Assembly (NCBI GenBank): GCA_964634925.1
Contig: CAZWKO010000001.1
Coordinates: 1 to 27,979, forward strand
Direction: 5' to 3'
DNA: 27,979 nt
Source of the DNA: an uncultured Vicinamibacteraceae bacterium
GTDB lineage: Bacteria; Acidobacteriota; Vicinamibacteria; Vicinamibacterales; UBA8438
Under the pieces are notes generated by a model, which was given only the letters and a program-made list of their open reading frames with translations, was not told the origin of the DNA and ran no database searches. The position numbers and the translations under genes are program-made. Below are positions 4,867-25,539 of this stretch, piece by piece (position 1 is the first letter of the stretch; each line of letters starts with the position of its first letter).

Positions 4867-5355
4867 TTATTCTAAAGTATCCGACTTTAATCGATACTCT
4901 CCGGTGGTCGGGTCTTGCTCTCGATATACAGCATGACAGGACGCACACGCCGCTTGAATGTCTGCAGCAACCTCCGCCGCCGCCATTGAATCCACTAGCT
5001 CCATCGATAGGACCGCATCGAGATCATCCATGCCCCGCAGCGCAGCACGCACATACCCAGTCGCGTCGTCTTTTTCATGGTCACGCCAGAACGTCACCGT
5101 CGTCGCTAACTGTTCACGTGATCGGCTGAGACGTTCTTTTGTGGTTGCGTAATCAGCAGCAGCAAGCGTTTGCATCGTGGCCGTAAAGTTCGGACCGAGC
5201 GTTTCCATTGTTGCCGCAAGATGATCAGTTGTATAAATCGGATACGGCCTTTGAGCCAACGCAACAATACCGACCATTCCCAAGATCGTCACTATCGAAC
5301 CGCACAGTTTTCCCAGATGACGCGTAATTCGGACCGAAATCTTTTTGTTAGACAT
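4867..5355 (-). CDS. Periplasmic class II cytochrome c (cytochrome c'/c-556-like four-helix bundle)
   Basis: Signal peptide ending ALA|Q, ~128-aa Ala-rich helical mature chain, single C-terminal CASCH. ATG 5355 overlaps the DUF1552 stop by 8 nt (162 aa). Confidence 0.75.
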   Translation of the reverse strand: MSNKKISVRITRHLGKLCGSIVTILGMVGIVALAQRPYPIYTTDHLAATMETLGPNFTATMQTLAAADYATTKERLSRSREQLATTVTFWRDHEKDDATGYVRAALRGMDDLDAVLSMELVDSMAAAEVAADIQAACASCHAVYREQDPTTGEYRLKSDTLE

Positions 5356-6700
5356 CAGTAAGACGCTCAAGGTGGCCGTTACTATCTCCAAATGAATCAA
5401 CCGGGACACCGAGTTTGTCGAGAATCGTCATGTAGAGATTCGCCAGTGGGGTGTCGTCAGCATACCGAACATAGCGCCCACCTTGAATGCCAGTCGCCTT
5501 GCCACCCACCAAGGCAATTGGAAGATCATCGTGGAAATGCGTATTGCTATCACTGATCCCAGTACCATAAAGAAACAGCGTCGAATCCAACATTGTCCCA
5601 TCGGCCTCAGGTAAGGCCGCTAATTTTTCAACCAGGTAAGCGAACTGCTGGAAATGATATCCGTTAATCTTGTGCAACCGTTCAAGCTTGGCGGGCTCAT
5701 CCTGATGATGCGAAAGAGGATGATGAGAATCAGACACTCCAATCTCCGGGTATGCACGCCCACTGACCTCTCGAGCCAACATAAAAGAACTGATCCGGGT
5801 TAAATCTGTCTGATAGGCCAATGCCAGAAGATCCATCATCAATTTAGCGTGCTCTGCATAATCGCTCGGCACCCCGACAGGCTGATCAACAACCGGAAGC
5901 TCGCGCGTACTTTGCTGCTCGGCCATTTGAATACGGCGTTCAATATCACGTAGCGCGTCTAGGTACTCGTCAAGCTTGATTTGATCACCAGGACCAAGAA
6001 TAAGTTCCAGACCTTCTAATTCACCGCCGACCGCGTCAAGAATGGAACGGTCTCGGCGTAATCGTTCCATCCTGGCCTCGGGATCTGTACTACCGGTAGT
6101 CCCAAACAGTCGCTCAAAGACAGCTCGGGGGTCGTTCTCAATCGGCAGTGGTGTCGTTGGTGTCCGCCATGCGATGGTGTTGGTGTAGGCGCAACTTGCA
6201 CCACCGTCACAGTTGCCAACCATGGCATTGGATTCAATCCCTAGTTCAAGAGACGCCAGTTGCGTCTCCTTTGACAACTCACGAGCTGCTATTTGGTCCA
6301 TCGAGACGGCCGCAAAGACATCCGCGCCACTTGTAATCTTGAAGGGAACACACGTCAGAAAAGTCCCCGCCGACCTCGCATGGTCTCCACCGCCCTTAAC
6401 CAAGTTAGCTGATTCGTCATCGAGCCCACCACACAGCAGCACGCGATCCTTAAACGCACTTAACGACTGCAACGTCGGCGGCAATGCAGCAAGCGGTCCT
6501 TCTTTTTGTGGAAACCAGTACGGCATCGACATCCCATTTGGCACATAAAAAACGCCGAAGCGACGCACCGGAGCAGCTGCCGTGCGACGTTGCGCCGTCA
6601 ATGCGGGAACCATGCCATCAAGCAGCGGCAACGCAATGGCAGCACCGAGACCACGCAGAACCGTTCGCCGAGGTAAATATTTCTTTGTAATGAACATCAT
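5348..6700 (-). CDS. DUF1552 (HXXSHH family) protein, copy 1, twin-arginine-type signal
   Basis: LPRRTVLRGLG leader, YVPNGM, GGDHAR, CDGGASCAYTNTIAW, PRAVFERLFG, SHHPLSHH and LPIALVGG. ATG 6700 is 1 nt after the DUF1592 stop (450 aa). Confidence 0.9.
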   Translation of the reverse strand: MMFITKKYLPRRTVLRGLGAAIALPLLDGMVPALTAQRRTAAAPVRRFGVFYVPNGMSMPYWFPQKEGPLAALPPTLQSLSAFKDRVLLCGGLDDESANLVKGGGDHARSAGTFLTCVPFKITSGADVFAAVSMDQIAARELSKETQLASLELGIESNAMVGNCDGGASCAYTNTIAWRTPTTPLPIENDPRAVFERLFGTTGSTDPEARMERLRRDRSILDAVGGELEGLELILGPGDQIKLDEYLDALRDIERRIQMAEQQSTRELPVVDQPVGVPSDYAEHAKLMMDLLALAYQTDLTRISSFMLAREVSGRAYPEIGVSDSHHPLSHHQDEPAKLERLHKINGYHFQQFAYLVEKLAALPEADGTMLDSTLFLYGTGISDSNTHFHDDLPIALVGGKATGIQGGRYVRYADDTPLANLYMTILDKLGVPVDSFGDSNGHLERLTDV

Positions 6701-6701
6701 G

Positions 6702-9110
6702 CTAGTCCTCAATGGCGCGCGCCTCTATATCATCCGGGGCACGACGTTTTTGAAAAGGCTCGCTGGTAACCACAGCCGCGATGAGTGAAGACCATCGGTA
6801 GTCGTTGTCTTTGAGAATGCGTGTTATACGACGGACCGTCGGCGCGTCATAGTACGCGACACCTCGACCCAACGCATAGGTTAGTAACTTTTCGGTCACG
6901 GTACGAACAAACTCATTATCACCGTCGGAGAGCAACGCCTCGCGAAAGGCCCGCGGGTGATCTATGACGGCATCTGACAACGTAATGGTCGCATTAATCT
7001 CCGCACCCCCGTCAGTCTCGCGCCATCGACCAATAGCATCGAAATGCTCCATCGCAAATCCCAATGGATCCATCCGTCGATGGCAACTTGCGCAAACTGG
7101 ACTACTCCGATGCTGTTCCATCCGTTCACGGAGCGACGACGGGTTCCGCCTATCGTTTTCCGCCAGTGGCGGCACATTCGGAGGCGGTGGCGGTGGCGGT
7201 GACCCCAGAAGCGTCTCAAGTACCCACTTGCCACGGAGTACCACTGATGTTCGGTTTGCGTATGACGTCACCGTGAGCACACTCGCGTGTCCGAGTAACC
7301 CGTGGCGCCGATCATCAGTCCATGCTGTCCGTCTGAACCGATTACCGTAGATCCCGGTTACGCCATAATGATCGGCGAGCTGCTCATTCAAAAACGTATA
7401 GTCCGCACGCAGCAATTCATCAATCGGGCGATCTTCGCGCACCTGACTTTCAAAGAAGAGTTCTGTCTCCCGGACCATCGCATTCCGTAGAGAATCGTTA
7501 AATCCAGCAAACAATGCGCCATCGGGGTCTTGAGAGTGTATGTTCCGAACCTGAAGCCATTGCCCAACAAAGTCATCCATGAAACGGGTCGCTCGACGGT
7601 CAGCAAGCATCCGGCGCACCTGACCAGCTAGTACATCAGGCTGACTCAGTTCATCACCAACCGCGAGTTCTAACAATTCTTCATCTGGGATACTTTTCCA
7701 GAGAAAAAAAGAAAGTCGTGATGCGAGTTCGATGTCACTTAGCTGGTAGATAGAACCGGGCTGTGTATCAACGGGCTGCCGCTCAAGACGTAGAAGAAAC
7801 TTTGGCATCGACAGCAGCGCTTCAAGTGCACGCTCTATACCCACCTCAAAGTCACGATCCAACCGTCCCTCCCGATAGACAACCATTAGCGGCTCAATAT
7901 CGTCATCGGTCACGGGTCTGCGATACGCACGACGGGTAAGGGCTCCCATGATCTCTCGTGCGCAGGCCTCCTCCTCCACGAGACTACTACTAGCCACCGG
8001 ATGGCAGCTAAATATACGTCGACGGCTCGGCGTGTCATCTGGGACCACACCATTGAACGGTCCAGAAATATAGACCGTGTCAATGCCTGGTTGATCGCTC
8101 GGCACACCCGGTGAGGGCGCTGAATCCGTAAAAGCAACTGACACGAGTCGTGTGCCCGCTTGAATCGGAACACGCACCTCCAACTCGTGGTCGGCTGTCA
8201 TCCGATATTCGTGCAGTCGTTGTCCATCGACATCCTCTTCCGGAACTGCTATGAGCTGACCCGGGTCCGGGCCAGGATACTTTCCTCCGATCAAGAAACG
8301 TTGAACAAGTGCATGATCGACCCGTACTTCAATTTGGTGTTCGTCTTCAGCAATTCCGTCGATCGTTTCAATCGTTTCATTTCGTTTCAAACGAACCGCA
8401 AACACATATTCACCATCCAAAGGAAACGTATGCCGAATCGCTAATCCCCCGTGGGTCGCGAATGGCATCGTTTCACCAGCTCGAAGATCGCGTCTCTCAT
8501 ACCCAACGTCGTAAACCTGCATGACCGGTCGGTTGTCACGACTCCCGACCGCGGCTCGACTAATCTTTGTTGCAGTCGCAATATAACGAGCCATTAATGA
8601 CGGTGTGATCGAAAGCACGTCAGCATTGTTATCGAATCCAAAACCGGCCATATCTCCCGGAAGCAGTGCACTCCCGTCGATTTCAAGTGCTAACAAATCG
8701 TAAATGGCGTTGACGTACTCAAGACGATTGAGGCGACGGGACGCCACTCGTCCGGGGTTAGGCCTCGTTGCTGCCGCACGGTCAAGCGCATTTTCTAGGG
8801 AGAACGTAAACTCGCCGATCGTCGCCGCGTCCGGCCGCGGACGTCCTTCCGGAGGCATTTGACCACTTCGAAGTTTCCGCACGACCTTTTCGAGAATTTC
8901 GGCATTGCCACCAACGTCTGCAAGGTCGAGACGGTCAAGTGAGAGGCCAGCAGTCTGCAGCCGGTCGTTGTGGCAAGTAATACAGTAATTTGTAAAAATT
9001 TCGCTGGAAATCGCTTCGGTGCGTTCCTGAGCCCAGGAGACCTGGAGCACCAAAAGAGACGCCAGCCCAACAAATCCACTGGCACCGAGTGTCAGCTTCA
9101 GCTTCAGCAT
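6702..9110 (-). CDS. DUF1592/DUF1587/DUF1588/DUF1595/DUF1585 (PSD-family) diheme cytochrome c, copy 1
   Basis: 802 aa. Signal ending SWA|Q. N-terminal heme CITCH...GQMPP. Also RRLNRLEYVNAIYDL, GFDN, RRAYRRP, ELASRLSFFLW, LRGKWVL..PPPPPPP, second heme CASCH and KLLTYALGR. Confidence 0.92.
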   Translation of the reverse strand: MLKLKLTLGASGFVGLASLLVLQVSWAQERTEAISSEIFTNYCITCHNDRLQTAGLSLDRLDLADVGGNAEILEKVVRKLRSGQMPPEGRPRPDAATIGEFTFSLENALDRAAATRPNPGRVASRRLNRLEYVNAIYDLLALEIDGSALLPGDMAGFGFDNNADVLSITPSLMARYIATATKISRAAVGSRDNRPVMQVYDVGYERRDLRAGETMPFATHGGLAIRHTFPLDGEYVFAVRLKRNETIETIDGIAEDEHQIEVRVDHALVQRFLIGGKYPGPDPGQLIAVPEEDVDGQRLHEYRMTADHELEVRVPIQAGTRLVSVAFTDSAPSPGVPSDQPGIDTVYISGPFNGVVPDDTPSRRRIFSCHPVASSSLVEEEACAREIMGALTRRAYRRPVTDDDIEPLMVVYREGRLDRDFEVGIERALEALLSMPKFLLRLERQPVDTQPGSIYQLSDIELASRLSFFLWKSIPDEELLELAVGDELSQPDVLAGQVRRMLADRRATRFMDDFVGQWLQVRNIHSQDPDGALFAGFNDSLRNAMVRETELFFESQVREDRPIDELLRADYTFLNEQLADHYGVTGIYGNRFRRTAWTDDRRHGLLGHASVLTVTSYANRTSVVLRGKWVLETLLGSPPPPPPPNVPPLAENDRRNPSSLRERMEQHRSSPVCASCHRRMDPLGFAMEHFDAIGRWRETDGGAEINATITLSDAVIDHPRAFREALLSDGDNEFVRTVTEKLLTYALGRGVAYYDAPTVRRITRILKDNDYRWSSLIAAVVTSEPFQKRRAPDDIEARAIED

Positions 9111-9181
9111 GATCTTAGACTCTCTGACCTATTTCCAAGTATATCGCTGCTACTTGTGCTAATCCCTAAATATTATTGATG

Positions 9182-9210
9182 TGGACGCAATTTCTAAGAG
9201 TGCATATAGT
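9182..9210 (+). promoter_or_regulatory. Candidate sigma70 promoter TGGACG-N17-TATAGT for the ankyrin/PQQ pair
   Basis: -35 matches 4/6 and -10 matches 5/6 with exact 17-nt spacing, in the AT-rich 110-nt divergent intergenic region. It would give a very short leader to ATG 9221. Confidence 0.35.
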
Positions 9211-9220
9211 GACGGCAGTC

Positions 9221-10840
9221 ATGCAGAGCGACCGTCGCACTCGCCGACTGAAGGTAGCCATAGTCATGGTGATGGCGATTCACGGTTACCTTGTGTCTTC
9301 CGCACACGCTCAAGACCATGCGCTAATCACAGCTTCATCTAATCAAGACTGGCCAGCCGTGATGGAACTCGTGCAGCAGGGAAGTGACCCCAATGTGGCG
9401 CGTGCTGACGGAGTCACCGCATTGCTTTTAGCCTCTCATTGGGACCAAGTCGAGATTGCGCGGCAACTAATCAGTGCCGGTGCCGACGTAAACGCCACCG
9501 ACGACCATGGAGTTTCGCCGCTTGAACGGGCCGCTCAAAACGCCAATACGAACTTAGTCGGTGTCTTGATCGAAGCTGGTGCGAATCCCAATGCGACCCT
9601 CACAAGTGGTTTGACACCACTCATGGTGGCAGCACGGACTGGTAATCTCGATGTTGTTCGACTGCTTCTAGACAATGGCGCTGACGTAAATGCAGCAGCC
9701 ACCGAAACTCAAAGCACCGCCTTAATGTGGGCCGTGGCTGAAACTCACAAAGACATTGTGCGCCTGCTGCTGGCTCGTAGTGCTGACCCAAGGCAATCAA
9801 CCATTAAAGGTTTCACACCATTGATGTATGCCGCACAGAATGGTGACATCGAAACCGCCGAGGCACTACTGGCAGCGGGTGTCGACCTCAATAAAAGAAG
9901 TAATGACGATACTCACGTCCTACCATTTGCAATCGTAAGCAATCAAGACACCTTCGCACTGTTTCTCCTTGAGCATGGAGCTGATCCAAACGGCACGATT
10001 AACGGTATCCCTGCATTACATGCGGCTGCAGGAAATGTCGGGGTGTGGCTCGGTGACTGGTATCGCCGGCACGGGCGAGGTGGCCTCTATGCACGTTTTC
10101 GGCGGGCAAGCCTCAGTGGGGGACAACGACTTCCTTTGGTTGAAGCACTCCTGGCCAAGGGTGCCAACCCCAACGGCCGGATCAGTTCTTCAGCCATGAT
10201 CATGAGCTACATCGGCTATCCCAAGAAGGGCGCGTTCGAACCGTTCGCATGTGGCACGGGCGACCTTCTCGGGGCGACGCCACTATGGGTTGCCGCGTAC
10301 GACATGAATGGTGCCGGAGGACAAGTATTTAGTGTCGGAGAAAGCCGAACCTCGACCAGCACTGACACCCTACTTGCACTTCTCAACGCCGGTGCAGACC
10401 AGCACTTGACAACCGCTGACGGGACAACACCCTTTATGGCAGCCGCTGGCCTCGGACGAGCCACCTATACCCCCCGTGAACCACGTGGTGTCCGGTCACC
10501 TAGCGCAGAAGCGGCAGTCAAGGTCTTGCTCGAAGCGGGTGCCGATATCAATGCAACAAATGAGGCCGACTTCTCCGCTCTCCATGGGGCTTCGTTTCGT
10601 GGGCTGAATGAAGTTGTAGAATTTCTTGTTGCCAAAGGCGCTGACATCAATGCTCGTGACTTTAGAGGCCGTACTGCGTACCGGTTGGCTCAAGGTTCTA
10701 AGCAGTCGTTCCAATTCCAAACCTGGCCCGACACCGCTGAACTACTTGAACGCCTTGGAGCTAATACCGATCTCGGTATTCCTGGTACGATTCAGGAACG
10801 CCTTAGAGACATTCCTTTGGACGCCACCGAACAACCCTGA
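9221..10840 (+). CDS. Exported ankyrin-repeat protein 1
   Basis: Multiple ankyrin repeats (DGVTALLLASHW, GLTPLMVAARTGNLDVVRLLLDNGADVN, GFTPLMYAAQNGD, DFSALHGASFRG). Signal ending AHA|Q. Start uncertain: 9176, 9221 or later. Confidence 0.9.
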   Translation: MQSDRRTRRLKVAIVMVMAIHGYLVSSAHAQDHALITASSNQDWPAVMELVQQGSDPNVARADGVTALLLASHWDQVEIARQLISAGADVNATDDHGVSPLERAAQNANTNLVGVLIEAGANPNATLTSGLTPLMVAARTGNLDVVRLLLDNGADVNAAATETQSTALMWAVAETHKDIVRLLLARSADPRQSTIKGFTPLMYAAQNGDIETAEALLAAGVDLNKRSNDDTHVLPFAIVSNQDTFALFLLEHGADPNGTINGIPALHAAAGNVGVWLGDWYRRHGRGGLYARFRRASLSGGQRLPLVEALLAKGANPNGRISSSAMIMSYIGYPKKGAFEPFACGTGDLLGATPLWVAAYDMNGAGGQVFSVGESRTSTSTDTLLALLNAGADQHLTTADGTTPFMAAAGLGRATYTPREPRGVRSPSAEAAVKVLLEAGADINATNEADFSALHGASFRGLNEVVEFLVAKGADINARDFRGRTAYRLAQGSKQSFQFQTWPDTAELLERLGANTDLGIPGTIQERLRDIPLDATEQP

Positions 10841-10880
10841 CCGAATGCATCAGCTCAAGCTTGAAGGATTAATATTAATA

Positions 10881-12989
10881 ATGACCAACCAGTGGATACG
10901 ACCTGCCATTTTTGTTTTAACGTTTAGTGTGGTCTCATCGACCGCACATGCCCAGCCATGGCAAACCTACGACACGTCAAACGGTGAATGGAGAAGCTAT
11001 GCCGGCGACATTCGAGGCACGAAATATTCTCCGCTCGACCAGATCGACGGCAGTAACTTTTCTGACTTAGAAGTAGCGTGGGAGTGGCTTTCTGTCGACA
11101 ATTCAGTCAGTCGCTCTACACCAGGTGGCGGCGAGTGGTGGGCGCCTCTGCCTACGATCGTCGATTCGCTCGTTACTGATACGCCTGACCTTTACCGGTC
11201 AAGCCAACCGCCTATTGCCTCACGTCTGCAGGCCACCCCCTTAATGGTCGATGGCGTGCTCTACTTTAATACTCCGCTCTCACAAGGTGTCGCGGTCGAT
11301 GCCGTCACTGGAGAAACTCTGTGGGTCTTCAATCCGAAGAGCTATGAAGACGGCACACCAACAATGAGTGCGCCTTGGTCCCAACGTGGTGTGGCCTATT
11401 GGACAGATGGTGCAGATGACGAACGGATCTACTGGGGCACCGGCAATGGTTATCTTGTCTGCGTCAGTGCAAAAACTGGCCAACCGTGTGCTGATTTTGG
11501 CCCGAACGGAAGTGGCATGGTCGACACGATGGCCGGTGTACCACGTGCGGTGCGTGGTGAACGTGACTACCTGAATGCACTGACCTGGGGAGTACATTCA
11601 CCACCAATCGTCGTCCGTGACAAAGTCATCCACGGCTCCCATGTCGCTGACCGACGAATCACGAAAGAAGCGATCCCAGGCTGGGTCAGAGCGTGGGATG
11701 CGCGTACAGGCGAACACTCGTGGGATTTTCACACTGTACCAAACAGCGCCGACGAATACGGTGTTGACACATGGGGCAATGACTCGTGGCGGTACTCCGG
11801 CAACGGCAACGTCTGGTCAATGCTTGCTGGCGACAATGAACTCGGGCATGTGTATCTTCCGACTGGAACTGTCACCAACGACTATGTTGGAGTCGATCGC
11901 CCAGGAGACAATTTATTTTCAGAATCCGTTATTGCTGTTGACGTCGAAACAGGACAGCGCCAGTGGCATTTCCAAGCTGTCCATCACGGCCTGTGGGATT
12001 ACGATTTCCCGACGCACTCCAACTTGGTGGATATCACCGTTGATGGCCGTGACATCAAGGCCCTTGCACAGATTAGCAAGCAAGGCTTCGTCTACGTTTT
12101 TGATCGGGAAACCGGTGATCCTGTTTGGCCCATTGAAGAACGTCCCGTACCGCAAAACTCAAACATGCCCGGTGAAGTGCTATCGCCGACACAACCCTTC
12201 CCAACAAAGCCAGACCCGTTCGACTATCAAGGCATCACTGTTGATGACTTAGTTGATTTCACACCAGAAATTCGAGCGATGGCACTTGAAGCCGTTGACG
12301 GCTGGAGACTCGGTCCACTGTTCACACCTCTTGATTTACCCGTCGAAGGCGAAACGAAAGGCACGGTCATGCGACCGCCGCCGGGGGGAACAGCCGGATG
12401 GTCCGGAGGTGCCGTCGACCCAGAAACTGGCATCCTCTATATCCCGTCCCACAACCAAATATCGGTAGTTGAAATGTACACGCCAGACCCAGAGCTTGGC
12501 GCGACGGTGCCTTACACCCACGGCGCAGATGAGGCTAGCCGTTTAGAACGCATTCGAGCCGGAACGTTTCGAAACGGGCCGATGATGCCTCAAGGGTTAC
12601 CCTTGGTCAAACCACCGTATTCAAGAATGTCAGCGCTTGACCTCAATACGGGGGAATACGTTTGGCAGGTTCCAACAGGAAACGGTGACCGGTTTCGAAA
12701 TCATCCGAGACTGCGTGATCTCAACCTCCCACCACTCGGCGGAGACGGCACGCGAACAGGTGTCGTCCTGACGAAAACATTGGTCATCTACAATCTCTCT
12801 GCCGGTGGTACAAACGGCGGACCACGGATGGTCGCTTACGATAAGGCCACTGGCGAAGAACTCGGGTCTGTTGACCTACCATCAGGTGCCCTCGGAACAC
12901 CTATGACCTACATGGTTAACGGTAAACAGTACGTCGCGCTCGGAATCGGCGGTGGTCCCAGGATGATCGCCTTTGCACTTCCTGATTAG
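10881..12989 (+). CDS. Soluble periplasmic PQQ-dependent dehydrogenase 1 (glucose/quinate dehydrogenase catalytic-domain-like)
   Basis: YSPLDQID, LQATPLMVDGVLY, RGVAYW, RPGDNLFSESVIAVD, HHGLWDYD, SKQGFVYVFDR and PFPTKP. Signal ending AHA|Q. GAAGGA SD before ATG 10881 (702 aa). No N-terminal five-TM domain and no vicinal Cys-Cys. Confidence 0.9.
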   Translation: MTNQWIRPAIFVLTFSVVSSTAHAQPWQTYDTSNGEWRSYAGDIRGTKYSPLDQIDGSNFSDLEVAWEWLSVDNSVSRSTPGGGEWWAPLPTIVDSLVTDTPDLYRSSQPPIASRLQATPLMVDGVLYFNTPLSQGVAVDAVTGETLWVFNPKSYEDGTPTMSAPWSQRGVAYWTDGADDERIYWGTGNGYLVCVSAKTGQPCADFGPNGSGMVDTMAGVPRAVRGERDYLNALTWGVHSPPIVVRDKVIHGSHVADRRITKEAIPGWVRAWDARTGEHSWDFHTVPNSADEYGVDTWGNDSWRYSGNGNVWSMLAGDNELGHVYLPTGTVTNDYVGVDRPGDNLFSESVIAVDVETGQRQWHFQAVHHGLWDYDFPTHSNLVDITVDGRDIKALAQISKQGFVYVFDRETGDPVWPIEERPVPQNSNMPGEVLSPTQPFPTKPDPFDYQGITVDDLVDFTPEIRAMALEAVDGWRLGPLFTPLDLPVEGETKGTVMRPPPGGTAGWSGGAVDPETGILYIPSHNQISVVEMYTPDPELGATVPYTHGADEASRLERIRAGTFRNGPMMPQGLPLVKPPYSRMSALDLNTGEYVWQVPTGNGDRFRNHPRLRDLNLPPLGGDGTRTGVVLTKTLVIYNLSAGGTNGGPRMVAYDKATGEELGSVDLPSGALGTPMTYMVNGKQYVALGIGGGPRMIAFALPD

Positions 12990-12996
12990 TCAGGCA

Positions 12997-14292
12997 TTAA
13001 TCAACGATCGCCTGATAGACCATCGTCCGCACATTCCGTTGATCATCCAAGTTGATCGCTGGAATGATCTGCGTCAAATAAACAACAATCAACTCTTCCT
13101 TAGGGTCGACCCAGTAGGTGGAGTGATAGGCGCCGGCCCAAGCGAACTCCCCGACCGAGCCGGGAAGCCCTGTCGCAGCCGGGTCATGCGTGAGAGAAAA
13201 GCCAAGACCAAAGCTCTGACCAGGGCGAAAGTCGATGCCATCCATATGGTCACTGATCATCGATTCAACTGTCTTTCTCGACAAAATTCGCGTGCCGTTT
13301 AACTCTCCTCCATTCAGCATCATCTGCAAGAAGGTGGCATAGTCAGTAGCAGTCGACAGTGCACCGGCGCCTGCGGAAAACGCCGTGCGCGGCCCGTTTA
13401 CGTAGTGCCCCTGCCCCTCCATATGACCCGGGTCTGGTGCACGCTCAAAGCTACTGCCATCTCCGACAGACGAATAGACAGTAGCAAGCCGTCCCAACTT
13501 ATTCTCAGGTAGGAAAAAATGCGTGTCGGTCATTCCAAGCGGGTCGAACAATCGCTCCTTGAGGAATTCACCGAGTGTCTGGCCGCTAATCTTCTCAATC
13601 ATCGCGCCTAATATGTCGGTGTTGTAGCCGTAGACCCAACGCTCCCCAGGATGAGCAGCCATCGGTAATTCTGCAAGCCGCGTCATCGTATCGATCACCG
13701 GTTCGTCGCGATTGGCGAAGTACCAACCATTGATACCCGCTTCTTCCCACACGTCACTTGAGGGACCATGGTCACGACTCCAAGTTCCATAGCTAATGCC
13801 AGCCGTATGCGTTAGCAAATCGCGGATGGTGATGGAACGTCGGGCCGGCACCACATTGTAGCCACCACCATCGTTCGGTTCGGCAACGGTTGTCTCGGCA
13901 AACGCCGGGAGGTACTTACCGATCGGGTCGGTGATTAGTAGCTTACCCTCCTCCTGAAGCAGCATGACACCCACGCTGGCAAGCGCCTTCGTTTGTGACG
14001 CGATTCTGAAAATTCCGTCAGATGGCATTGGCGCTTGTGCCTCCACATCGCGATGACCGATCCCCTCTCGGTAGGCTATCTTGCCCCTCCGGACGACAAT
14101 AGTGACCGCACCGGCGAGTCGTCCATCGTCGACGTAGCTCTCGAGTGCCAGACTTAAGCGGTCAAGACGTTCGGACGACAGTCCCACCTCTTCCGGCGTA
14201 ACGCGGACCAACCCCTGGCCGACCAGCGTCTGCGGAACGAGCAACAGTACAAACACGACGACGAGCGCCGTCAACCGATTGTGTGATGTCAT
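12997..14292 (-). CDS. Exported serine hydrolase, class C beta-lactamase / family VIII esterase fold
   Basis: 431 aa. FRIASQTK (SxxK), LLTHTAG, PGERWVYG (Tyr motif) and FAWAG. Signal ending LVG|Q. GAGGTGA SD. Confidence 0.9.
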   Translation of the reverse strand: MTSHNRLTALVVVFVLLLVPQTLVGQGLVRVTPEEVGLSSERLDRLSLALESYVDDGRLAGAVTIVVRRGKIAYREGIGHRDVEAQAPMPSDGIFRIASQTKALASVGVMLLQEEGKLLITDPIGKYLPAFAETTVAEPNDGGGYNVVPARRSITIRDLLTHTAGISYGTWSRDHGPSSDVWEEAGINGWYFANRDEPVIDTMTRLAELPMAAHPGERWVYGYNTDILGAMIEKISGQTLGEFLKERLFDPLGMTDTHFFLPENKLGRLATVYSSVGDGSSFERAPDPGHMEGQGHYVNGPRTAFSAGAGALSTATDYATFLQMMLNGGELNGTRILSRKTVESMISDHMDGIDFRPGQSFGLGFSLTHDPAATGLPGSVGEFAWAGAYHSTYWVDPKEELIVVYLTQIIPAINLDDQRNVRTMVYQAIVD

Positions 14293-14357
14293 CGCGTCAC
14301 CTCAAATTTTCTCAGAATCTCTACCATTTCGATGATCAGTATAGCTCGCTGCAACCA

Positions 14358-14447
14358 GTTCGGGCCTGCCACCTCGACGTGCGAACATAGTTCGGCCCAC
14401 CCTATCGTGACCGAAGTGGTAGTCTTGGCAAAAGTGACAGTCCGAAC
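14358..14447 (-). other. Intergenic ~90-nt nested stem-loop structure on the transcribed strand (cis-regulatory RNA, processing site or decayed repeat)
   Basis: Outer stem of 6 bp plus 10 bp, inner 9-bp hairpin, two 15-nt linkers. Four G-U pairs form only on the minus strand. Confidence 0.5.
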
Positions 14448-14453
14448 GAGAAA

Positions 14454-15590
14454 CTACTCGTGTGCTTCGATTAGTTCGTATGCGAGTCCATTCGGGTCTT
14501 CGATCAAGATCGCTCGTGTCTCGCCGAGGGTATACGGACCCTCAAGAATTGGTACGCTCTTAGCCTCAAGGTGGGCAATGACATCATCGAGGTCTGGATA
14601 CGTCAAACCAATGTGATCGACGACTTGCCCACGTGATCGAACTAGCGATCGATCAAGACCGGCACCGCAGCGACCGTCTCGACACTGCCGCGGATACCAC
14701 AACCAGCTCGCATTGCCGACTCGAGCATTTCCAGCCGGAATTCGAAGTTGCCCCACCTCCATGTAGGTCGGAAACGTGACCTCTCCAGTTGGGACCTCGC
14801 ATGGACTCCACCCGTTCTCACTAAAGTTAAAATCCGAGCTGAACGTGTTCTGATTCTCAGGAAACTTCGCACCAAGGTGCTCCACGTGCCAGTTGGCCGC
14901 ACACAGTGGATGCTCCGCCCAGAAATGTGTGTGACTACGAAAGCTGTCATTCTGGCCGGCCGTGACCTCCACCAACATCCCGTCCGGGTCCACGAGATAC
15001 GCGAAATCGAGACCCGAGGTTGGAGGAGTAGGTGGATCAGCAGCCTCCTCCTCGGCGCGTTCGGCAATACTGCTCGCGCGCAGCAAGGCATCCCCCATAG
15101 GTAGTGCAAGTGCATGGTGCGCCGTGTCGCCGCCATCGGACCCACCGTATAAGGTCACAAACTCGAACGCTTCCTGGTCAAAATCACGGATGCGTTCACG
15201 AAATGCGTCGGTGTTGGGTCCAGCAAACGTCGACCCAAAGGTCCAAAATCCACTCTGAGGCTCTGAACGCTGTAACGCTCGGTCAAACCCACCGGGGGGT
15301 TGCGTATCGACCTGCGTATACAACAGGTAAATGTCATCGTAGAAAGCCGGAAACCCTGCGTAGGTTGTGGCCTCTCCCTGTGGCCAGTAATCGCTGTACC
15401 AGGCGATCGAACGGTCCGGATCGACAGAGTTGATATGAATATGGTGAAACGTGGGTGGTGGAAGCGCAACCACCACGTCCTCAGACGCCACGGTCGCTCC
15501 CTCTTCGGCAAACTCAGGAAGCCCGCATGCGGCAGTCAAAACTGTCGCGGCGATCACACTTCTCACGGAAACAACCAACGTTTTCCTCAT
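14454..15590 (-). CDS. VOC (glyoxalase/bleomycin-resistance/dioxygenase superfamily) multi-module protein, probable lipoprotein
   Basis: FHHIHIN, FAYLVDPDGMLVEV, HTHFW, VDHIGL and ILIEDPNGLAYELIE. N-terminus MRK...VLTAA|C with a lipobox-like Cys (378 aa from ATG 15590). Confidence 0.8.
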   Translation of the reverse strand: MRKTLVVSVRSVIAATVLTAACGLPEFAEEGATVASEDVVVALPPPTFHHIHINSVDPDRSIAWYSDYWPQGEATTYAGFPAFYDDIYLLYTQVDTQPPGGFDRALQRSEPQSGFWTFGSTFAGPNTDAFRERIRDFDQEAFEFVTLYGGSDGGDTAHHALALPMGDALLRASSIAERAEEEAADPPTPPTSGLDFAYLVDPDGMLVEVTAGQNDSFRSHTHFWAEHPLCAANWHVEHLGAKFPENQNTFSSDFNFSENGWSPCEVPTGEVTFPTYMEVGQLRIPAGNARVGNASWLWYPRQCRDGRCGAGLDRSLVRSRGQVVDHIGLTYPDLDDVIAHLEAKSVPILEGPYTLGETRAILIEDPNGLAYELIEAHE

Positions 15591-15629
15591 TGACGGCAAA
15601 TCAACTTTGTTTGTGCCTTGGTCCCACTT

Positions 15630-17714: not shown

Positions 17715-17736
17715 GGTTTTCCTCCAAAAAATTAAA

Positions 17737-19299
17737 TCACTGGTCAGCAGCAAGTCGACGTAGTAGTTCCATCGTGCTTTCGTGCGGTCCGGCATTCGCC
17801 CCACGCCCAAAACCTTGCCGCGCGAAATCAAATGGGGTCAATCCCCCTTCGTTCATCACCGCTAGATCAGCGCCCTGGACAACCAAGTACTCAACGACGG
17901 TGTCATACCCTCGACGCGCCGCTGCGTGAAGCGCGGTGTTGCCATCGGTATCCGCCGCATTAAGGTCTACGCCAAGCTCAACCGCCAGCGTGACCGCGGC
18001 AAGTGTCGTGGTCTCGACCTTGTCCCAATCAGGATCGCGCCGAGTGCTTCGGACCGGTGCGCTCTCGGCAATGCGTCCGAGCCGATCGACGGCAATGAGT
18101 GGCGCACGCCCGCCGAGCCCAACCGCTGCCATTAACGCGGTCGTGGGACCTTCCTCAATCATCCGACGATCTTCGGTAACCCCGAGAGATCCCGGCCAGT
18201 AACTTGGAGAATGCTGCGCATGTGGGTCAGCACCGAGTTCAGCGAGCTGATACATGATGTCCGGCGCACCGAAACGGGCCGCAAGCCAAAACGGCGTCGC
18301 TCCTACATAGGAAGGATGCAGATAAAAATCAACAGCATCCCGGCGAACAGGGGTAGCCCGTTCAACCGTCACGTTGGGGTCAGCGCCATGCGCAAGTAGC
18401 GTACGGACAAGGTCGTTGTCTTTATGCAGGATAGCAGCATGTAACGCGGTATAACCGGCCTCGGCTGCATCTGGGTCCGCCCCGCGTTCAACAAGATAGG
18501 ACGCCACCTCTCCATGCCCACTATGGGCCGCGACAACGACAGCACTCGTACCCACCGGCGCGAGATCATTAACATCAGCCCCAGCCTCAACCAGTAATCG
18601 GGCAGACGCGAGATCACCAACGCGTGCCGCAAATAGCAACGGCGTGTAGCCACCCTGCTGCTGCTCAGTCACATACTCAGGGCTCCATGGGTCCGGTGAT
18701 GTCTTGACCACCTCAGTCCACGACACCGTCCGAGTATCAACATCCGCCCCATACTCAAGCAACACTTCGACAACCGCGGCGTGGCGCTGCGCCGCAGCCC
18801 ACATGAGTGCGGTTTGACCACGCGCAGCAGTCACTTCAGTTCCGGCACCGGCTTCAAGAAGATGACGTACAACAGCAGCGTCACCACTCCGTGCTGCAGT
18901 CATCAATACCGTCTCGCCTGACAGAAGAGCCACATTCGGGTCGGCACCCGCGGCTAGCAGTTGGCGCACTATTACCAGACTACTGTTCTCAGCCGCACTC
19001 CAGAGTGGTGTCACACCGAGGTCGGTCGCCGCATTCACATCGGCCCCTGCAGCAATCAAGCGAGCGGCAATATTAACCTGGTCCCAGTGCACGGCCCAGT
19101 GGAGCGCGGTTGAACCATCTCCCTGGGAGATTGTGACGTCAACACCACCGTCCAGTGATACTTGAACACTCACCCAATCGGCATTACGAGCAGCATCCGC
19201 CACGGTCGGCTCAGCACGCTCAGCAGCAAATACGCTGACAGCGCCCAAGATTACGGCCGCGACGATCCATACACTCTGGAGTAAACGAGTCATTAGCAT
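17737..19299 (-). CDS. Exported ankyrin-repeat protein 2
   Basis: DGSTALHWAVHW, GETVLMTAARSGD, GQTALMWAAAQ, GYTPLLFAARVGD and DGNTALHAAARRG. Signal ending VFA|A. The start overlaps the DUF1552 stop (TGATG). Confidence 0.9.
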   Translation of the reverse strand: MLMTRLLQSVWIVAAVILGAVSVFAAERAEPTVADAARNADWVSVQVSLDGGVDVTISQGDGSTALHWAVHWDQVNIAARLIAAGADVNAATDLGVTPLWSAAENSSLVIVRQLLAAGADPNVALLSGETVLMTAARSGDAAVVRHLLEAGAGTEVTAARGQTALMWAAAQRHAAVVEVLLEYGADVDTRTVSWTEVVKTSPDPWSPEYVTEQQQGGYTPLLFAARVGDLASARLLVEAGADVNDLAPVGTSAVVVAAHSGHGEVASYLVERGADPDAAEAGYTALHAAILHKDNDLVRTLLAHGADPNVTVERATPVRRDAVDFYLHPSYVGATPFWLAARFGAPDIMYQLAELGADPHAQHSPSYWPGSLGVTEDRRMIEEGPTTALMAAVGLGGRAPLIAVDRLGRIAESAPVRSTRRDPDWDKVETTTLAAVTLAVELGVDLNAADTDGNTALHAAARRGYDTVVEYLVVQGADLAVMNEGGLTPFDFARQGFGRGANAGPHESTMELLRRLAADQ

Positions 19300-20636
19300 C
19301 ACACCTCAGACAACGTATCGATGGGAAGCCTATTTGTGCTCTCACCCAATCGTTCAAGAGGCATGTCGAGCTTGTCCATCAGGGTCATCAGCAAGTCAGC
19401 ATTCGACGTATCAGCGGGAAACCTGAGGTGCCGTCCCCCTTTGATCTTTCCTGCGCCCCCACCAAGAACAAGAAGCGGAAGATTCGTACCTGAGTGACTG
19501 GTACTGTTCGAGATGCCGGCCCCGTACAAGATGGTCATGTGGTCGAGCATCGTACCGTCACCGTCCTGCGCAGCGCGCAATCTATCCAGATACCCTGCTG
19601 TCAGCTCAACATGATAGGTATTGATCTTCGACATTAACGCCACACGGGCAGGGATGTTTTCATGGTGCGATAGAGGATGGTGAGCATCAGGAACCCCCAC
19701 TTGTGGAAACGGGCGTGTGCTTTGCTCCCTACCCATCATGAACGTCACCACACGCGTTAAGTCAGCTTGCAGGGCAAGAAACTGGAGGTCAAACATCAGT
19801 TGTAGATGTTCTTCAAATACCCGCGGCGGCCCAGACGGCTGCTCTGTAAACGACGGCTCAATGTCACGTTGTGCCTCAGCCAGTGCGATGCGCCTCTCAA
19901 CATCTCGGACGGCTTCGGTATATTCGTCGAGCCTCGCCCGATCACTCGTTCCAACCGCAATCTTAAGATCCGTTAATTTGTCGGTCACCGAGTCGAGAAT
20001 GCTTTGCTTCTCCTGGCGACGCTCTCGCCGGACCGCCGGATCAGCCGACCCACTATCCCCAAACAATCGCTCAAAAACAGCCCGCGGATTATTTTCCATC
20101 GGCAGAGGCGTGGTCGGCGTTCGCCAGGAGATCGTCTGCGTATAGGCACAACTCAAACCAGCCGTACACTGTCCAGCATTGGCGAACTTGTCTATTGCCA
20201 CCTCGAGCGAACCGAGTTGCGTCGTTTTCCCAAGTTCCCGAGCGAGGATCTGGTCCATTGACGTACTCGCAAGAACATCGGTCTCGTTTTCACCACCGCG
20301 CGGCGTTCCCGTAAGAAACGAGGCGGAAGCCCCAGCGTGCACGTAGTTCCATGACGATCGAAGTCCAGAAATGACGAGCAATTGGTCCCTGAACCGATCG
20401 AGCGGTGCAAGAATCGGACTTAGGTCAAAACGAGTTCCGACGACCTCCGGGGTCCAATAGGGCATTGCCATGCCGTTCGGCACATAGACCGCCTGGAAGC
20501 GATGGATCGGCTTTGCCGCTGTCTTCGCGAGCGCTGTCACAGCCGGCACCATCGCATCGAGTAGCGGAAGCCCCATTGTCACACCAAGACCTCGGAGGAC
20601 AGTGCGACGTGGAAGTGATTTCTTAGTGATTGTCAT
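19299..20636 (-). CDS. DUF1552 (HXXSHH family) protein, copy 2, twin-arginine-type signal
   Basis: LPRRTVLRGLG, YVPNGM, VHAG, CTAGLSCAYTQTISW, PRAVFERLFG and AHHPLSHH. ATG 20636 (445 aa) is 10 nt after the DUF1592 stop. Confidence 0.9.
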   Translation of the reverse strand: MTITKKSLPRRTVLRGLGVTMGLPLLDAMVPAVTALAKTAAKPIHRFQAVYVPNGMAMPYWTPEVVGTRFDLSPILAPLDRFRDQLLVISGLRSSWNYVHAGASASFLTGTPRGGENETDVLASTSMDQILARELGKTTQLGSLEVAIDKFANAGQCTAGLSCAYTQTISWRTPTTPLPMENNPRAVFERLFGDSGSADPAVRRERRQEKQSILDSVTDKLTDLKIAVGTSDRARLDEYTEAVRDVERRIALAEAQRDIEPSFTEQPSGPPRVFEEHLQLMFDLQFLALQADLTRVVTFMMGREQSTRPFPQVGVPDAHHPLSHHENIPARVALMSKINTYHVELTAGYLDRLRAAQDGDGTMLDHMTILYGAGISNSTSHSGTNLPLLVLGGGAGKIKGGRHLRFPADTSNADLLMTLMDKLDMPLERLGESTNRLPIDTLSEV

Positions 20637-20646
20637 AAAGTCTCTC

Positions 20647-23115
20647 TCAGTTCGCAGAAACAAGCGCGGCGTTGCGAGTCAAAAAGGCTGGACTCTTTAC
20701 AATTCCCAAAACGAGCGACGACCAACGATAGTCATCGACTGCCGCATCCTGCACAATCGCACGAACAGTTGGCTTATCGTAATACCCAAGCGCACGGCCC
20801 AAGGCATACGACAAAAGTTTTTCTGTCACCGTTGCGGCAAACTGCTCTGGCTGTTGAAGCAAAAGTGTGCGCAGTCCGGTCATCCCCTGCACCTCAACTC
20901 CATTTGGCATCGTGGCAGTGGCGTCGATTGGGTTTCCAAATTCATCAACATCACGCCAGGCCCCAAGACCATCAAAATTTTCAAGCGCAAACCCAGGCGG
21001 ATCGATCGTGGCATGACAAGCGGCACACGCTGGCGCCTGGCGGTGACGCTCAAGGCGGTCACGTACCGATGTCGTGTTTCCACCCTCTCCCCGTTCAGGC
21101 AATGGCGGTACATCAGCGGGTGGTGTTGGCGCCGGAGCCCCAAAGATCGTATCAAGCAGCCACTTTCCTCGCAGCACCGGCGATGTCCGAGTTGGGTAGG
21201 ATGAAATAGCTAACAATCCTCCATGCCCAAGTAGGCCGCCACGTTGTTCACGGTCCGGTACTGTCACTTTCCTGAAACGACTGCCATAGATTCCCTGAAT
21301 ACCGTAATGTCGTGCGAGACGCTCGTTGACGAACGTGTAATCCGCATCAAGTAGTTCAAGAATACTTCGATCCTCGTTAAGGGTACTCGACAAGAAACGA
21401 GTCGTTTCTTGATAGAACGCATCGACCAGATTGTCGTCAAAATCCGGGAACGGCACGGGGTCACCTTTCACATCTTCCAAGTTGCGAAGATGGAGCCATT
21501 GGACGGCAAAATCATCAACTAGCGATCGGGACCTCGAATCGTTAAGCATCCGATGGACTTGTACTTCGAGCTGACCAGGATCAGTCAGATTGCCCTGTTC
21601 CGCAATGTCCAACAACAGATCGTCTGGCAAACTGCCCCAAAGAAAGAATGAGAGTCGAGACGCAACCTCCATGTCGCTCAGTTGATAAGCACGTTCGGGG
21701 CCAACCGAGTCAGGATCTCGTTCTATACGAAGCAGAAAATCTGGGTCAACTAGTAAACGCTCAAGGGCAAGTTGAATGCCTCGGTCAAAGCTACCGCCAT
21801 TCTCACGGCCACGATCAAAAAAACCAAGGAGCGTCGACAGATCGTCTTCGTTCACGGGACGACGATACGCTCGCCGCGCCAACCGCGACAGTATTGCTGT
21901 CGCGCAGTCTCGCTCCGCACTGACCGTCGTCGGTTGGCAGCTAAAAATAGCCATACGGCTCGCGGTCTGGCCGACGCCACCCGAAGCGTATGGGCCAGCA
22001 ATGGAAACCGAACTCACGGCGGCATTCCCATGATATGCCTCATCATTTGACAGCACCTCACCCACTTGATGCGGCTTGAGGATGCCCTCCGGCTCCCAGA
22101 GATCACGAACAAACGACACGCCCACAACGCGTGAGCCGGCTGCAACGGGAATACGCACTTCAAGGTCTTGGTCGGCATTGAGGACATATGCTTCCCACTC
22201 CGGCGCCCCCTTCTCTGCGATGGTAAAGGTCACTGGCGCGGCCCTAGCCGTTGTTCCGCCACCCACGGTAAAACGTTTCACGAGCACACCATCGATACGA
22301 ACGTCAAGTAACTGTTCGGTGCCCATCCCGAGAATGTAGTCCTGCCAGTTTGTTCGAAGATCTATCTTGAAGAGGTATTCACCGTCAACCGGGAAGTGGT
22401 ACTGGATGGCATGTCCACCACGTGAGCCCAGCGGCAGGTGTTCACTTTGGCGGTCGTCCTGTACGAGTAACAAAGGAACGTCAAAGGTCTCAAACTGCGG
22501 CGCGAGTGGAGCCACCCCAACCGCTAAACGAGAAATACGACGAGCAGCCGATAAGTATCGCTCAAGCTGAGACGTCGTCATCGACAATACATCCGCGTTG
22601 TTATCGAAACCAGTATCAGAAGTCTCATCACCTGGCAGCAGTAAATCGACCTCGATATCAACCGCGAGCAGATCCCGGATAGCATTCCGATACTCCGTGC
22701 GATTTAGTCGGTGTGTTGTACTCGTCCGACCTGGGTTCGGACTTAACGCAGCTGCCTGATCAATTGACGCTTCAAGCCGACTGGCTACGGCATGGTAGGT
22801 CTCAACATCAGGACGTGGGCGACCCGCCGGTGGCATTGCACCACTTCGTAACTTCAAAATGATCCGCTCCCACACATCGGCATCATCGCTGGGATTACGG
22901 CCGTCCAAACGATCGAATGACAGGCCGGCAGTTTGAATGCGATCGTTGTGACAGGATGAGCAATAGCGTTCTATCAACTCCTGCGGACCAGTGACCTCTT
23001 CAGATGCCTGTGCCCACACGGGGGATTGCGTGGCACAAACGAGCAGGAAAGTCGTACTCACCTGTAATTTCCCACCACATAAAACACCGTGTAGCTGTCG
23101 TATCAACTTTCTCAT
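20647..23115 (-). CDS. DUF1592/PSD-family diheme cytochrome c, copy 2
   Basis: 822 aa. CSSCH...GAMPP, HRLNRTEYRNAIRDL, GFDN, RRAYRRP, EVASRLSFFLW, RTSPVLRGKW, CAACH and KLLSYALGR. Signal ending VWA|Q. Confidence 0.92.
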   Translation of the reverse strand: MRKLIRQLHGVLCGGKLQVSTTFLLVCATQSPVWAQASEEVTGPQELIERYCSSCHNDRIQTAGLSFDRLDGRNPSDDADVWERIILKLRSGAMPPAGRPRPDVETYHAVASRLEASIDQAAALSPNPGRTSTTHRLNRTEYRNAIRDLLAVDIEVDLLLPGDETSDTGFDNNADVLSMTTSQLERYLSAARRISRLAVGVAPLAPQFETFDVPLLLVQDDRQSEHLPLGSRGGHAIQYHFPVDGEYLFKIDLRTNWQDYILGMGTEQLLDVRIDGVLVKRFTVGGGTTARAAPVTFTIAEKGAPEWEAYVLNADQDLEVRIPVAAGSRVVGVSFVRDLWEPEGILKPHQVGEVLSNDEAYHGNAAVSSVSIAGPYASGGVGQTASRMAIFSCQPTTVSAERDCATAILSRLARRAYRRPVNEDDLSTLLGFFDRGRENGGSFDRGIQLALERLLVDPDFLLRIERDPDSVGPERAYQLSDMEVASRLSFFLWGSLPDDLLLDIAEQGNLTDPGQLEVQVHRMLNDSRSRSLVDDFAVQWLHLRNLEDVKGDPVPFPDFDDNLVDAFYQETTRFLSSTLNEDRSILELLDADYTFVNERLARHYGIQGIYGSRFRKVTVPDREQRGGLLGHGGLLAISSYPTRTSPVLRGKWLLDTIFGAPAPTPPADVPPLPERGEGGNTTSVRDRLERHRQAPACAACHATIDPPGFALENFDGLGAWRDVDEFGNPIDATATMPNGVEVQGMTGLRTLLLQQPEQFAATVTEKLLSYALGRALGYYDKPTVRAIVQDAAVDDYRWSSLVLGIVKSPAFLTRNAALVSAN

Positions 23116-25317: not shown

Positions 25318-25539
25318 GGTTCCTCCTCGCGACATTCCCGAATGAAGCCTGTAGCTTATTCTCAGAAAGTTGAGCATTTCACATGGCATCAGAGTACACA
25401 AGCCTTCCCACACCCAAACACCCCTCCAAACTTAGCTATCGACCCTCGGTGCACGAAAATTCTATGATCTTGAGCCGTGTAATCTCGTAGGCGCGTCAAA
25501 CCATAAACATTAAGTCAGACAGATTCGGGAGATACAAAC

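Follow-up and report, generated by a model that had tools for sequence, protein, structure and literature searches.

Two strongly diverged copies of a DUF1592-DUF1552-ankyrin gene module in an uncultured Vicinamibacteraceae bacterium, with PQQ dehydrogenases as interchangeable neighbours

The window analysed here, a stretch of 27,979 nucleotides (nt) comprising positions 1 to 27,979 of contig CAZWKO010000001.1 (GenBank assembly GCA_964634925.1) from an uncultured Vicinamibacteraceae bacterium of the Acidobacteriota, contains two sets of genes for exported proteins, each with a DUF1592-type cytochrome, a DUF1552 protein, an ankyrin-repeat protein and a pyrroloquinoline quinone (PQQ) dehydrogenase. 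From the gene layout in this and related genomes we propose, with a probability of about 0.7, that the window holds two paralogues, separated by ancient divergence, of a periplasmic module of three genes, and that the PQQ dehydrogenases lie outside the unit. The conserved unit is DUF1592 > DUF1552 > ankyrin, three genes and not four. These genes travel together, are translationally coupled and co-diverge, and they occupy 20 to >42 loci per genome in this Vicinamibacterales family. An initial annotation of the window had treated all four genes as one periplasmic unit; a conserved, uncharacterised exported module that includes the ankyrin stands, but a PQQ dehydrogenase that belongs to it as a cognate component is not supported. 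The two sets comprise the following features.

6702 to 9110, minus strand: DUF1592-type dihaem cytochrome, copy 1; Pfam domain string PSCyt1-PSD3-PSD5-PSD4-PSCyt3-PSD2; CITCH at residue 43 and CASCH at residue 673
5348 to 6700, minus strand: DUF1552 protein (HXXSHH, PF07586), copy 1, Tat-exported; Pfam 327 bits; RRTVL leader
9111 to 9220: divergent intergenic region of 110 nt between DUF1592 copy 1 and ankyrin 1, read from the sequence
9221 to 10840, plus strand: exported ankyrin-repeat protein 1, third member of trio copy 1; Pfam Ank families; signal peptide
20647 to 23115, minus strand: DUF1592-type dihaem cytochrome, copy 2 (Pfam); CSSCH at residue 52 and CAACH at residue 697
19299 to 20636, minus strand: DUF1552 protein, copy 2, Tat-exported; Pfam 306 bits; RRTVL leader
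17737 to 19299, minus strand: exported ankyrin-repeat protein 2, third member of trio copy 2; Pfam Ank
4867 to 5355, minus strand: small exported cytochrome c of 162 amino acids (aa), an accessory of copy 1; a single C-terminal CASCH, possibly class II / c'-like
10845 to 12989 (alternative start 10881), plus strand: PQQ-propeller dehydrogenase 1 (PQQ1), facultative neighbour; PF01011, 592 bits
15630 to 17714, minus strand: PQQ-propeller dehydrogenase 2 (PQQ2), facultative neighbour; PF01011, 565 bits

Listing of the open reading frames (ORFs) together with Pfam searches confirmed the two copies and their two arrangements as initially annotated. In copy 1, DUF1592 > DUF1552 > small cytochrome c are on the minus strand and ankyrin > PQQ on the plus strand, 110 nt away; in copy 2, DUF1592 > DUF1552 > ankyrin > PQQ are all collinear on the minus strand. 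Both internal orders (DUF1592 then DUF1552, ankyrin then PQQ) are kept in the two copies, as had been described. The junctions, again read from the sequence, are as tight as claimed: copy 1 has a 1-nt gap between DUF1592 and DUF1552 and an 8-nt overlap between DUF1552 and the small cytochrome, and copy 2 has a 10-nt gap and then a TGATG overlap between DUF1552 and the ankyrin gene. The spacing from ankyrin 1 to PQQ1 is 4 nt, or 40 nt with the second ATG; that from ankyrin 2 to PQQ2 is 22 nt and contains GGAGG. The predicted export routes also agree with the first description, the DUF1552 proteins carrying twin-arginine (Tat) leaders and the ankyrin and PQQ proteins Sec-type leaders.

Identity between the copies is 51% for DUF1552, 45% for DUF1592, 33% for ankyrin and 40% for PQQ, which bears out the initial statement that no recent duplication is involved. 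The closest paralogue of DUF1552 copy 1 (77% identical) sits on another contig of this metagenome-assembled genome (MAG; 2.9 Mb, 84% complete), and the two window copies are therefore not sisters. The trio duplication is far beyond chance; the PQQ repetition is weaker evidence, since genomes of this lineage carry many PQQ dehydrogenase genes, about 19 in the MAG and about 40 in relatives. As a separate observation, the DUF1592 gene beside the 77% paralogue is broken into three ORFs (contig C9, locus L003, 1597-4018), either as a pseudogene or through assembly frameshifts.

The DUF1552 family is present in 23 of 24 genomes of the same family, mostly with 20 to >42 matches each, and the MAG has 22 DUF1552 genes. 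Because DUF1552 and PQQ families both occur in such high copy number, claims of linkage need a background rate. Of the 17 ankyrin ORFs in the MAG, 13 are immediate neighbours of a DUF1592/DUF1552 pair, one is two genes removed, and contig ends truncate the other three. Three layouts occur: DUF1592 > DUF1552 > ankyrin (seven times), ankyrin divergent from DUF1592 > DUF1552 (five times) and ankyrin > DUF1592 > DUF1552 (once). A closed genome of the same genus, G004 (5.2 Mb), gave the same picture: all 17 distinct ankyrin genes among the matches listed lie within 4 kb of a DUF1552 gene (about 0.6 expected), and examination of all module regions revealed an ankyrin gene in 23 of 24 modules. Among 80 loci from other species, in which an ankyrin gene was counted if within 500 nt of the pair, 70 have one; these include 10/10 Bryobacterales loci, one from Longimicrobiales (Gemmatimonadota) and one labelled Acidimicrobiia. 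The divergent ankyrin/DUF1592 layout of copy 1 also recurs repeatedly in other species. Thus the neighbourhood check proposed in the initial annotation ties ankyrin to the pair; PQQ was found within 2.5 kb of a core gene in 14/80 loci, and its enrichment in G004 was no longer significant once regional gene density was kept.

The three genes also co-diverge. Over 20 complete G004 trios the Mantel r was 0.76 for DUF1592-DUF1552, 0.40 for DUF1552-ankyrin and 0.47 for DUF1592-ankyrin (all P<=2e-4). The co-phylogeny expected from the first reading was thus found for these three, but not for the linked PQQ genes, which are scattered over the PQQ tree. Orthologues in G004 are 76% identical for ankyrin 1 (in the same position), 90% for DUF1552 copy 2 and 75% for ankyrin 2. 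Four marine metatranscriptomes contained contigs 95-99% identical over parts of all eight genes, one of which crosses the DUF1592/DUF1552 junction of copy 1; this shows the presence of the genes in RNA libraries of related strains, not operon structure.

One of the other-species loci (L036, contig VFZL01000011.1) comes from an Actinomycetota bin and is labelled Acidimicrobiia. It carries a complete trio whose DUF1552 is 58% identical, and may represent a mis-binned contig or lateral transfer.

The DUF1592/DUF1552 pair has been described before. In He et al. 2017 (PMC5615132), PSCyt3/PSD (DUF1592/DUF1588) genes paired with DUF1552 are reported from Planctomycetota and Verrucomicrobiota as multi-copy and of unknown function, and the PSCyt/PSD domains are there cited as first defined in Rhodopirellula baltica. 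The pair in our genomes has the same Pfam domain string, the same DUF1552 gene immediately downstream, a similarly high copy number and, again, no known function; it differs in having a near-constant third gene, for a secreted ankyrin protein, and in its host, a marine Acidobacteriota lineage. Neither an ankyrin partner nor a PQQ link is mentioned in the accessible parts of the literature on DUF1592, DUF1552 and PSCyt3. The trio is, then, an ankyrin-bearing acidobacterial variant of a known, uncharacterised pair. As to the initial suggestion of an undescribed system, the ankyrin partner is new with respect to that same literature, but the pair itself is not.

A second system for comparison is the PSCyt1/PSCyt2/PSD1 + DUF1501 module, which Kamneva et al. 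2012 (PMC3542564) describe as conserved and multi-copy in Planctomycetes-Verrucomicrobia-Chlamydiae (PVC) bacteria, with unknown function and a proposed role in electron transport. It likewise combines a large exported CxxCH protein with a twin-arginine protein in many paralogous loci, and in the AlphaFold database (AFDB) DUF1552 finds its closest structural match outside its own family in DUF1501 (E 7e-9), followed by sulfatases. The differences lie in the Pfam families, in the marginal profile similarity (hhalign probability 16%) and in the ankyrin partner, none being described for the DUF1501 module in what is accessible of that work. The MAG also has six DUF1501 matches of its own (contigs C17, C30, C77 and C118; loci L101, L102, L105 and L106), and the DUF1501 genes on L101, L102 and L106 each stand directly beside an unannotated ORF of about 424-440 aa.

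Judged from its motifs, the DUF1592 protein is probably a genuine dihaem c-type cytochrome, as initially annotated. The domains PSD3, PSD5, PSD4, PSCyt3 and PSD2 score above their gathering thresholds, in that order, in both copies, and both CxxCH motifs (one N-terminal, one in the PSCyt3 domain) are kept in 14/14 paralogues here and in 81/83 from other species. The AlphaFold2 (AF2) model of copy 1 (pLDDT 83) contains, at residues ~194-355, a jelly-roll resembling CBM6/35/36 at borderline Z scores of 7-8. The helical C-terminal half found no solved counterpart in Foldseek and VIA-wide searches with the whole model, and in AFDB the model recovered only its own family, some members of which are named with CBM2 or cellulose-binding domains. 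The ankyrin proteins, of ~500 residues, match Ank, Ank_2 and related Pfam families with E values of 1e-54 to 1e-58.

The small cytochrome of copy 1 has no Pfam match; a homologue matches Cytochrom_C_2 with 21.8 bits, below the cut-off of 26.5. Homologues directly follow DUF1552 in six loci (L021, L022, L023, L025, L029 and L033), all of them close copy 1 orthologues, and in G004 the gene (2527807-2528253) is 71% identical. Since it is found only behind DUF1552 copy 1 orthologues, and always directly downstream, we regard it as a lineage-specific accessory of one paralogue group.

DUF1552 lies directly downstream of DUF1592 in both copies and in the gene orders of the MAG, G004 and the other species. 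Its Pfam matches are full-length, with 327 and 306 bits where the cut-off is 30, and the RRTVL leader of the window proteins has RRxxL counterparts in 72/91 DUF1552 proteins elsewhere. The AF2 model of copy 1 (pLDDT 79.9, pTM 0.82) points to an alkaline-phosphatase/sulfatase-superfamily fold. The top Foldseek matches are all to structures of this superfamily (E ~3e-4), and VIA-align superposed 240-285 residues on sulfatases, NPPs, phosphonate monoester hydrolases (PMH) and EptC with Z scores of 14-17. Because of this fold DUF1552 is not an obvious redox enzyme, and its initial casting as a substrate oxidase does not agree with the prediction. The likeness to the superfamily (type I sulfatases, NPP/autotaxin, PMH, LtaS/EptC) is confined to the predicted core fold: identity is 8-14%, and searching PDB chains with the DUF1552 profile returned nothing meaningful. 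No CxPxR-type motif is conserved in DUF1552. Its invariant histidines and aspartates, among them H326, H327, H331, H332, D372 and H388, form a cluster whose composition suggests a metal site. We know of no alkaline-phosphatase-superfamily enzyme that pairs with a cytochrome.

The two PQQ proteins are full-length eight-bladed propellers (PF01011 positions 1-595). The nearest solved structure to PQQ1 is the 1kv9 propeller (E 4e-44), and both are distantly related to the propeller of the type II quinohaemoprotein alcohol dehydrogenase (ADH). They share the full PQQ propeller and WDYD with that enzyme and with soluble PQQ ADHs that use a separate cytochrome c (MxaF/XoxF/ExaA), but differ in having neither a fused cytochrome nor the vicinal Cys-Cys and in falling below the NCBIfam cut-offs (methanol/ethanol family TIGR03075, 220 and 218 bits against 480). 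None of the 19 PQQ paralogues in the MAG (contigs C1 to C359) contains a CxxCH motif or the vicinal Cys-Cys. Being without a cytochrome domain, the window enzymes need an external electron acceptor. At the catalytic Asp, 16/19 paralogues have WDYD or WDWD, WDYD in PQQ1; the extra Asp is a signature typical of lanthanide-dependent enzymes.

Closed relatives have roughly 40 full-length PQQ dehydrogenases against ~19 in the MAG. A search for pqqC (TIGR02111) gave no match in the MAG or in the closed relatives G004 and G006, but the control genomes were silent as well, so that absence is not proven. Aquatic Vicinamibacteria have been reported as PqqU-dependent PQQ scavengers (PMC12124388). Three PQQ dehydrogenase matches in G004 (342525-344285, 573732-575492 and 3659026-3660786) have identical scores and 701-aa ORFs, which suggests a very recent duplication or a repeated mobile segment.

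The PQQ dehydrogenase is a frequent and interchangeable neighbour of the trio, not a fixed member. In the other-species set a full PQQ gene lies <=2.5 kb from a core gene in the 14 loci already counted, none of them among the 10 Bryobacterales loci, and anywhere within +-10 kb in 17/80. A co-oriented PQQ gene directly after the ankyrin gene is found in 3/23 G004 modules. Elsewhere, copy 1 orthologues (DUF1552 identity 79-88%) keep the small cytochrome and mostly not the PQQ gene. Where a PQQ gene directly abuts a trio it is on the ankyrin side in 12/16 cases, eight of these downstream and co-oriented. The slot after the ankyrin gene is otherwise filled by DUF481, CarboxypepD_reg, esterase, amidohydrolase, VOC (L030), PhyH dioxygenase and soluble glucose dehydrogenase (sGDH) genes, TonB-like and other outer-membrane protein barrels, a transporter and unknowns. 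Neighbour cluster 5 was discarded, since it consisted of antisense shadow ORFs of DUF1552 produced by a simple ORF caller.

A single G004 region is syntenic with both modules of the window. In it the ankyrin > PQQ link of copy 1 is kept, with a PQQ1 orthologue (86% identical) and a tandem PQQ duplicate. The copy 2 orthologue is followed by an unrelated 490-aa gene in place of PQQ; the PQQ2 orthologue (84%) is found at a distance of ~350 kb, where it is convergent with a different trio and one gene removed from it. In a maximum-likelihood tree of 35 G004 PQQ dehydrogenases and the two window proteins, PQQ1 and PQQ2 fall into different clades, and the eight module-linked rows require six label changes, which does not differ from shuffled labels (mean 7.4; 54/500 as low). 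A Mantel test that included PQQ was non-significant, with n=5 modules and hence no power.

Against a uniform-random null, 9/38 G004 PQQ genes within 8 kb of DUF1552 compare with 2.4 expected, a 3.7-fold excess. This was dropped as the main test when a local-jitter null revealed island-scale clustering: jitter of +-30 kb gave 8.0 against the 9 observed (P=0.38), and of +-60 kb 6.1 (P=0.10). At G004 2105000-2205000, for instance, an island of 100 kb combines five PQQ dehydrogenase genes with seven trios; islands of this kind account for most of the apparent enrichment, which is mainly island-scale. At most, a redox chain that passes through the PQQ dehydrogenase would be a facultative extra.

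In the three-gene reading, the trio proteins would assemble as a periplasmic complex. DUF1552 would be its metal-dependent catalytic subunit, hydrolase- or transferase-like; DUF1592 may supply a jelly-roll domain for binding, together with two haems that serve electron transfer or redox control, and the ankyrin a protein-protein scaffold. Each paralogue would presumably serve a different substrate. Around the trios lie genes for exported catabolic enzymes of many different kinds. PQQ dehydrogenases would be the commonest of many interchangeable genes landing in the variable slot downstream of the ankyrin gene, within genomic islands rich in both gene classes, and might at most be non-cognate clients that use the haems of the module as an electron outlet.

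Several points weigh against this proposal. The RNA evidence consists of assembled contigs from related strains, by which co-transcription is not proven. A nucleophile and metal ligands at the canonical positions of the alkaline-phosphatase superfamily are at best putative in DUF1552, and hhalign of DUF1552 against four DUF1501 proteins of the MAG gave a marginal C-terminal match (probability 16%), in which the DxNxH of DUF1552 is aligned with the GRDH of DUF1501. PQQ dehydrogenases form the largest neighbour cluster (16 genes in 13 loci) and make up 12/123 neighbours on the ankyrin side, compared with 4/145 on the remaining sides (Fisher P=0.02). Given this residual preference for the ankyrin slot and the size of the cluster, a real functional tie is possible for a subset of the PQQ genes.

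That the adjacency of PQQ genes has no functional meaning, two expanded classes of genes for exported proteins merely sharing islands and coming to lie side by side by chance, is conceivable, although we doubt it. In its favour, ~38-45 full-length PQQ dehydrogenase genes and 24 modules share 5.2 Mb, the +-30 kb null comes close to the count observed, and trio neighbours are mostly singletons from many families. Chance would, however, leave unexplained the preference for the ankyrin-adjacent, co-oriented slot, the ankyrin > PQQ link of copy 1 kept between two species of the genus, and the PQQ2 orthologue which, though relocated, is again beside a trio.

A dedicated four-protein oxidation unit, in which a copy-specific substrate is oxidised by PQQ dehydrogenase and/or DUF1552, DUF1592 accepts the electrons and the ankyrin serves to dock both, appears improbable. 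It would account for the co-oriented, closely spaced PQQ genes after both window ankyrins, for enzymes that lack a cytochrome domain and need an external acceptor, for the largest neighbour cluster with its ankyrin-side preference (P=0.02), and for other cytochrome-dependent dehydrogenases (sGDH, GMC, molybdenum hydroxylase) that also stand beside trios. If DUF1592 stood in for a dedicated cytochrome, one would expect a separate cytochrome gene more often near unlinked PQQ genes; another CxxCH ORF lies within 4 kb of 5/12 unlinked against 1/7 linked genes, a non-significant difference in the predicted direction (P=0.33). Yet most modules are without PQQ, the linked PQQ genes are polyphyletic, the copy 2 quartet is not kept even within the genus, island-scale clustering accounts for the enrichment, DUF1552 has a hydrolase-type predicted fold, and the Mantel test with PQQ was non-significant, though at n=5 it had no power.

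Perhaps the trio is instead a modular periplasmic docking platform, where the ankyrin recruits whichever client enzyme the slot encodes, be it a PQQ dehydrogenase, sGDH, esterase, amidohydrolase or another, DUF1592 takes up or hands on the electrons and DUF1552 processes the product; we think this, too, a long shot. Least of all do we favour the ankyrins as eukaryote-like effectors for interaction with hosts or grazers, a role suggested for ankyrins from sponge symbionts and Legionella, with no link to the cytochrome pair: their best NCBIfam matches are indeed Legionella Dot/Icm ankyrin effectors, but these are all far below cut-off and reflect the repeat alone, the proteins carry Sec leaders, a TGATG overlap joins an ankyrin gene to the DUF1552 stop codon, essentially every genomic ankyrin gene is tied to a pair and co-diverges with it, and no type IV secretion context was seen.

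The remaining genes are variable neighbours or lie upstream of copy 2.

12997 to 14292, minus strand: beta-lactamase-fold serine hydrolase, variable neighbour; Pfam PF00144, NCBIfam matches all below cut-off
14454 to 15599, minus strand: 381-aa protein with a C-terminal VOC/glyoxalase-like domain (PF00903), variable neighbour, 30 nt downstream of PQQ2
23233 to 25413, minus strand: 726-aa CarboxypepD_reg-domain protein (Pfam) upstream of copy 2

The serine hydrolase is possibly the last gene of the copy 2 transcription unit. CarboxypepD_reg proteins of ~720-755 aa, like that of the window, abut trios in other species as well (e.g. L069, L031).

Among the gene families of environmental bacteria that lack a known function, the DUF1592/DUF1552 pair is one of the large ones, and at 20 to >42 loci per genome the trio, ankyrin included, would take up ~2-4% of coding capacity by our own rough, uncomputed estimate. 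If the docking arrangement were true, the 20-40 paralogues per genome would be a combinatorial toolkit to oxidise and de-esterify dissolved organic matter. Showing that PQQ is optional keeps a wrong four-component model from steering experiments, and leaves the narrower question of whether the DUF1592 haems can take electrons from neighbouring cytochrome-less quinoproteins. The fixed ankyrin partner and the predicted phosphatase/sulfatase fold of DUF1552 provide concrete experimental handles on this family.

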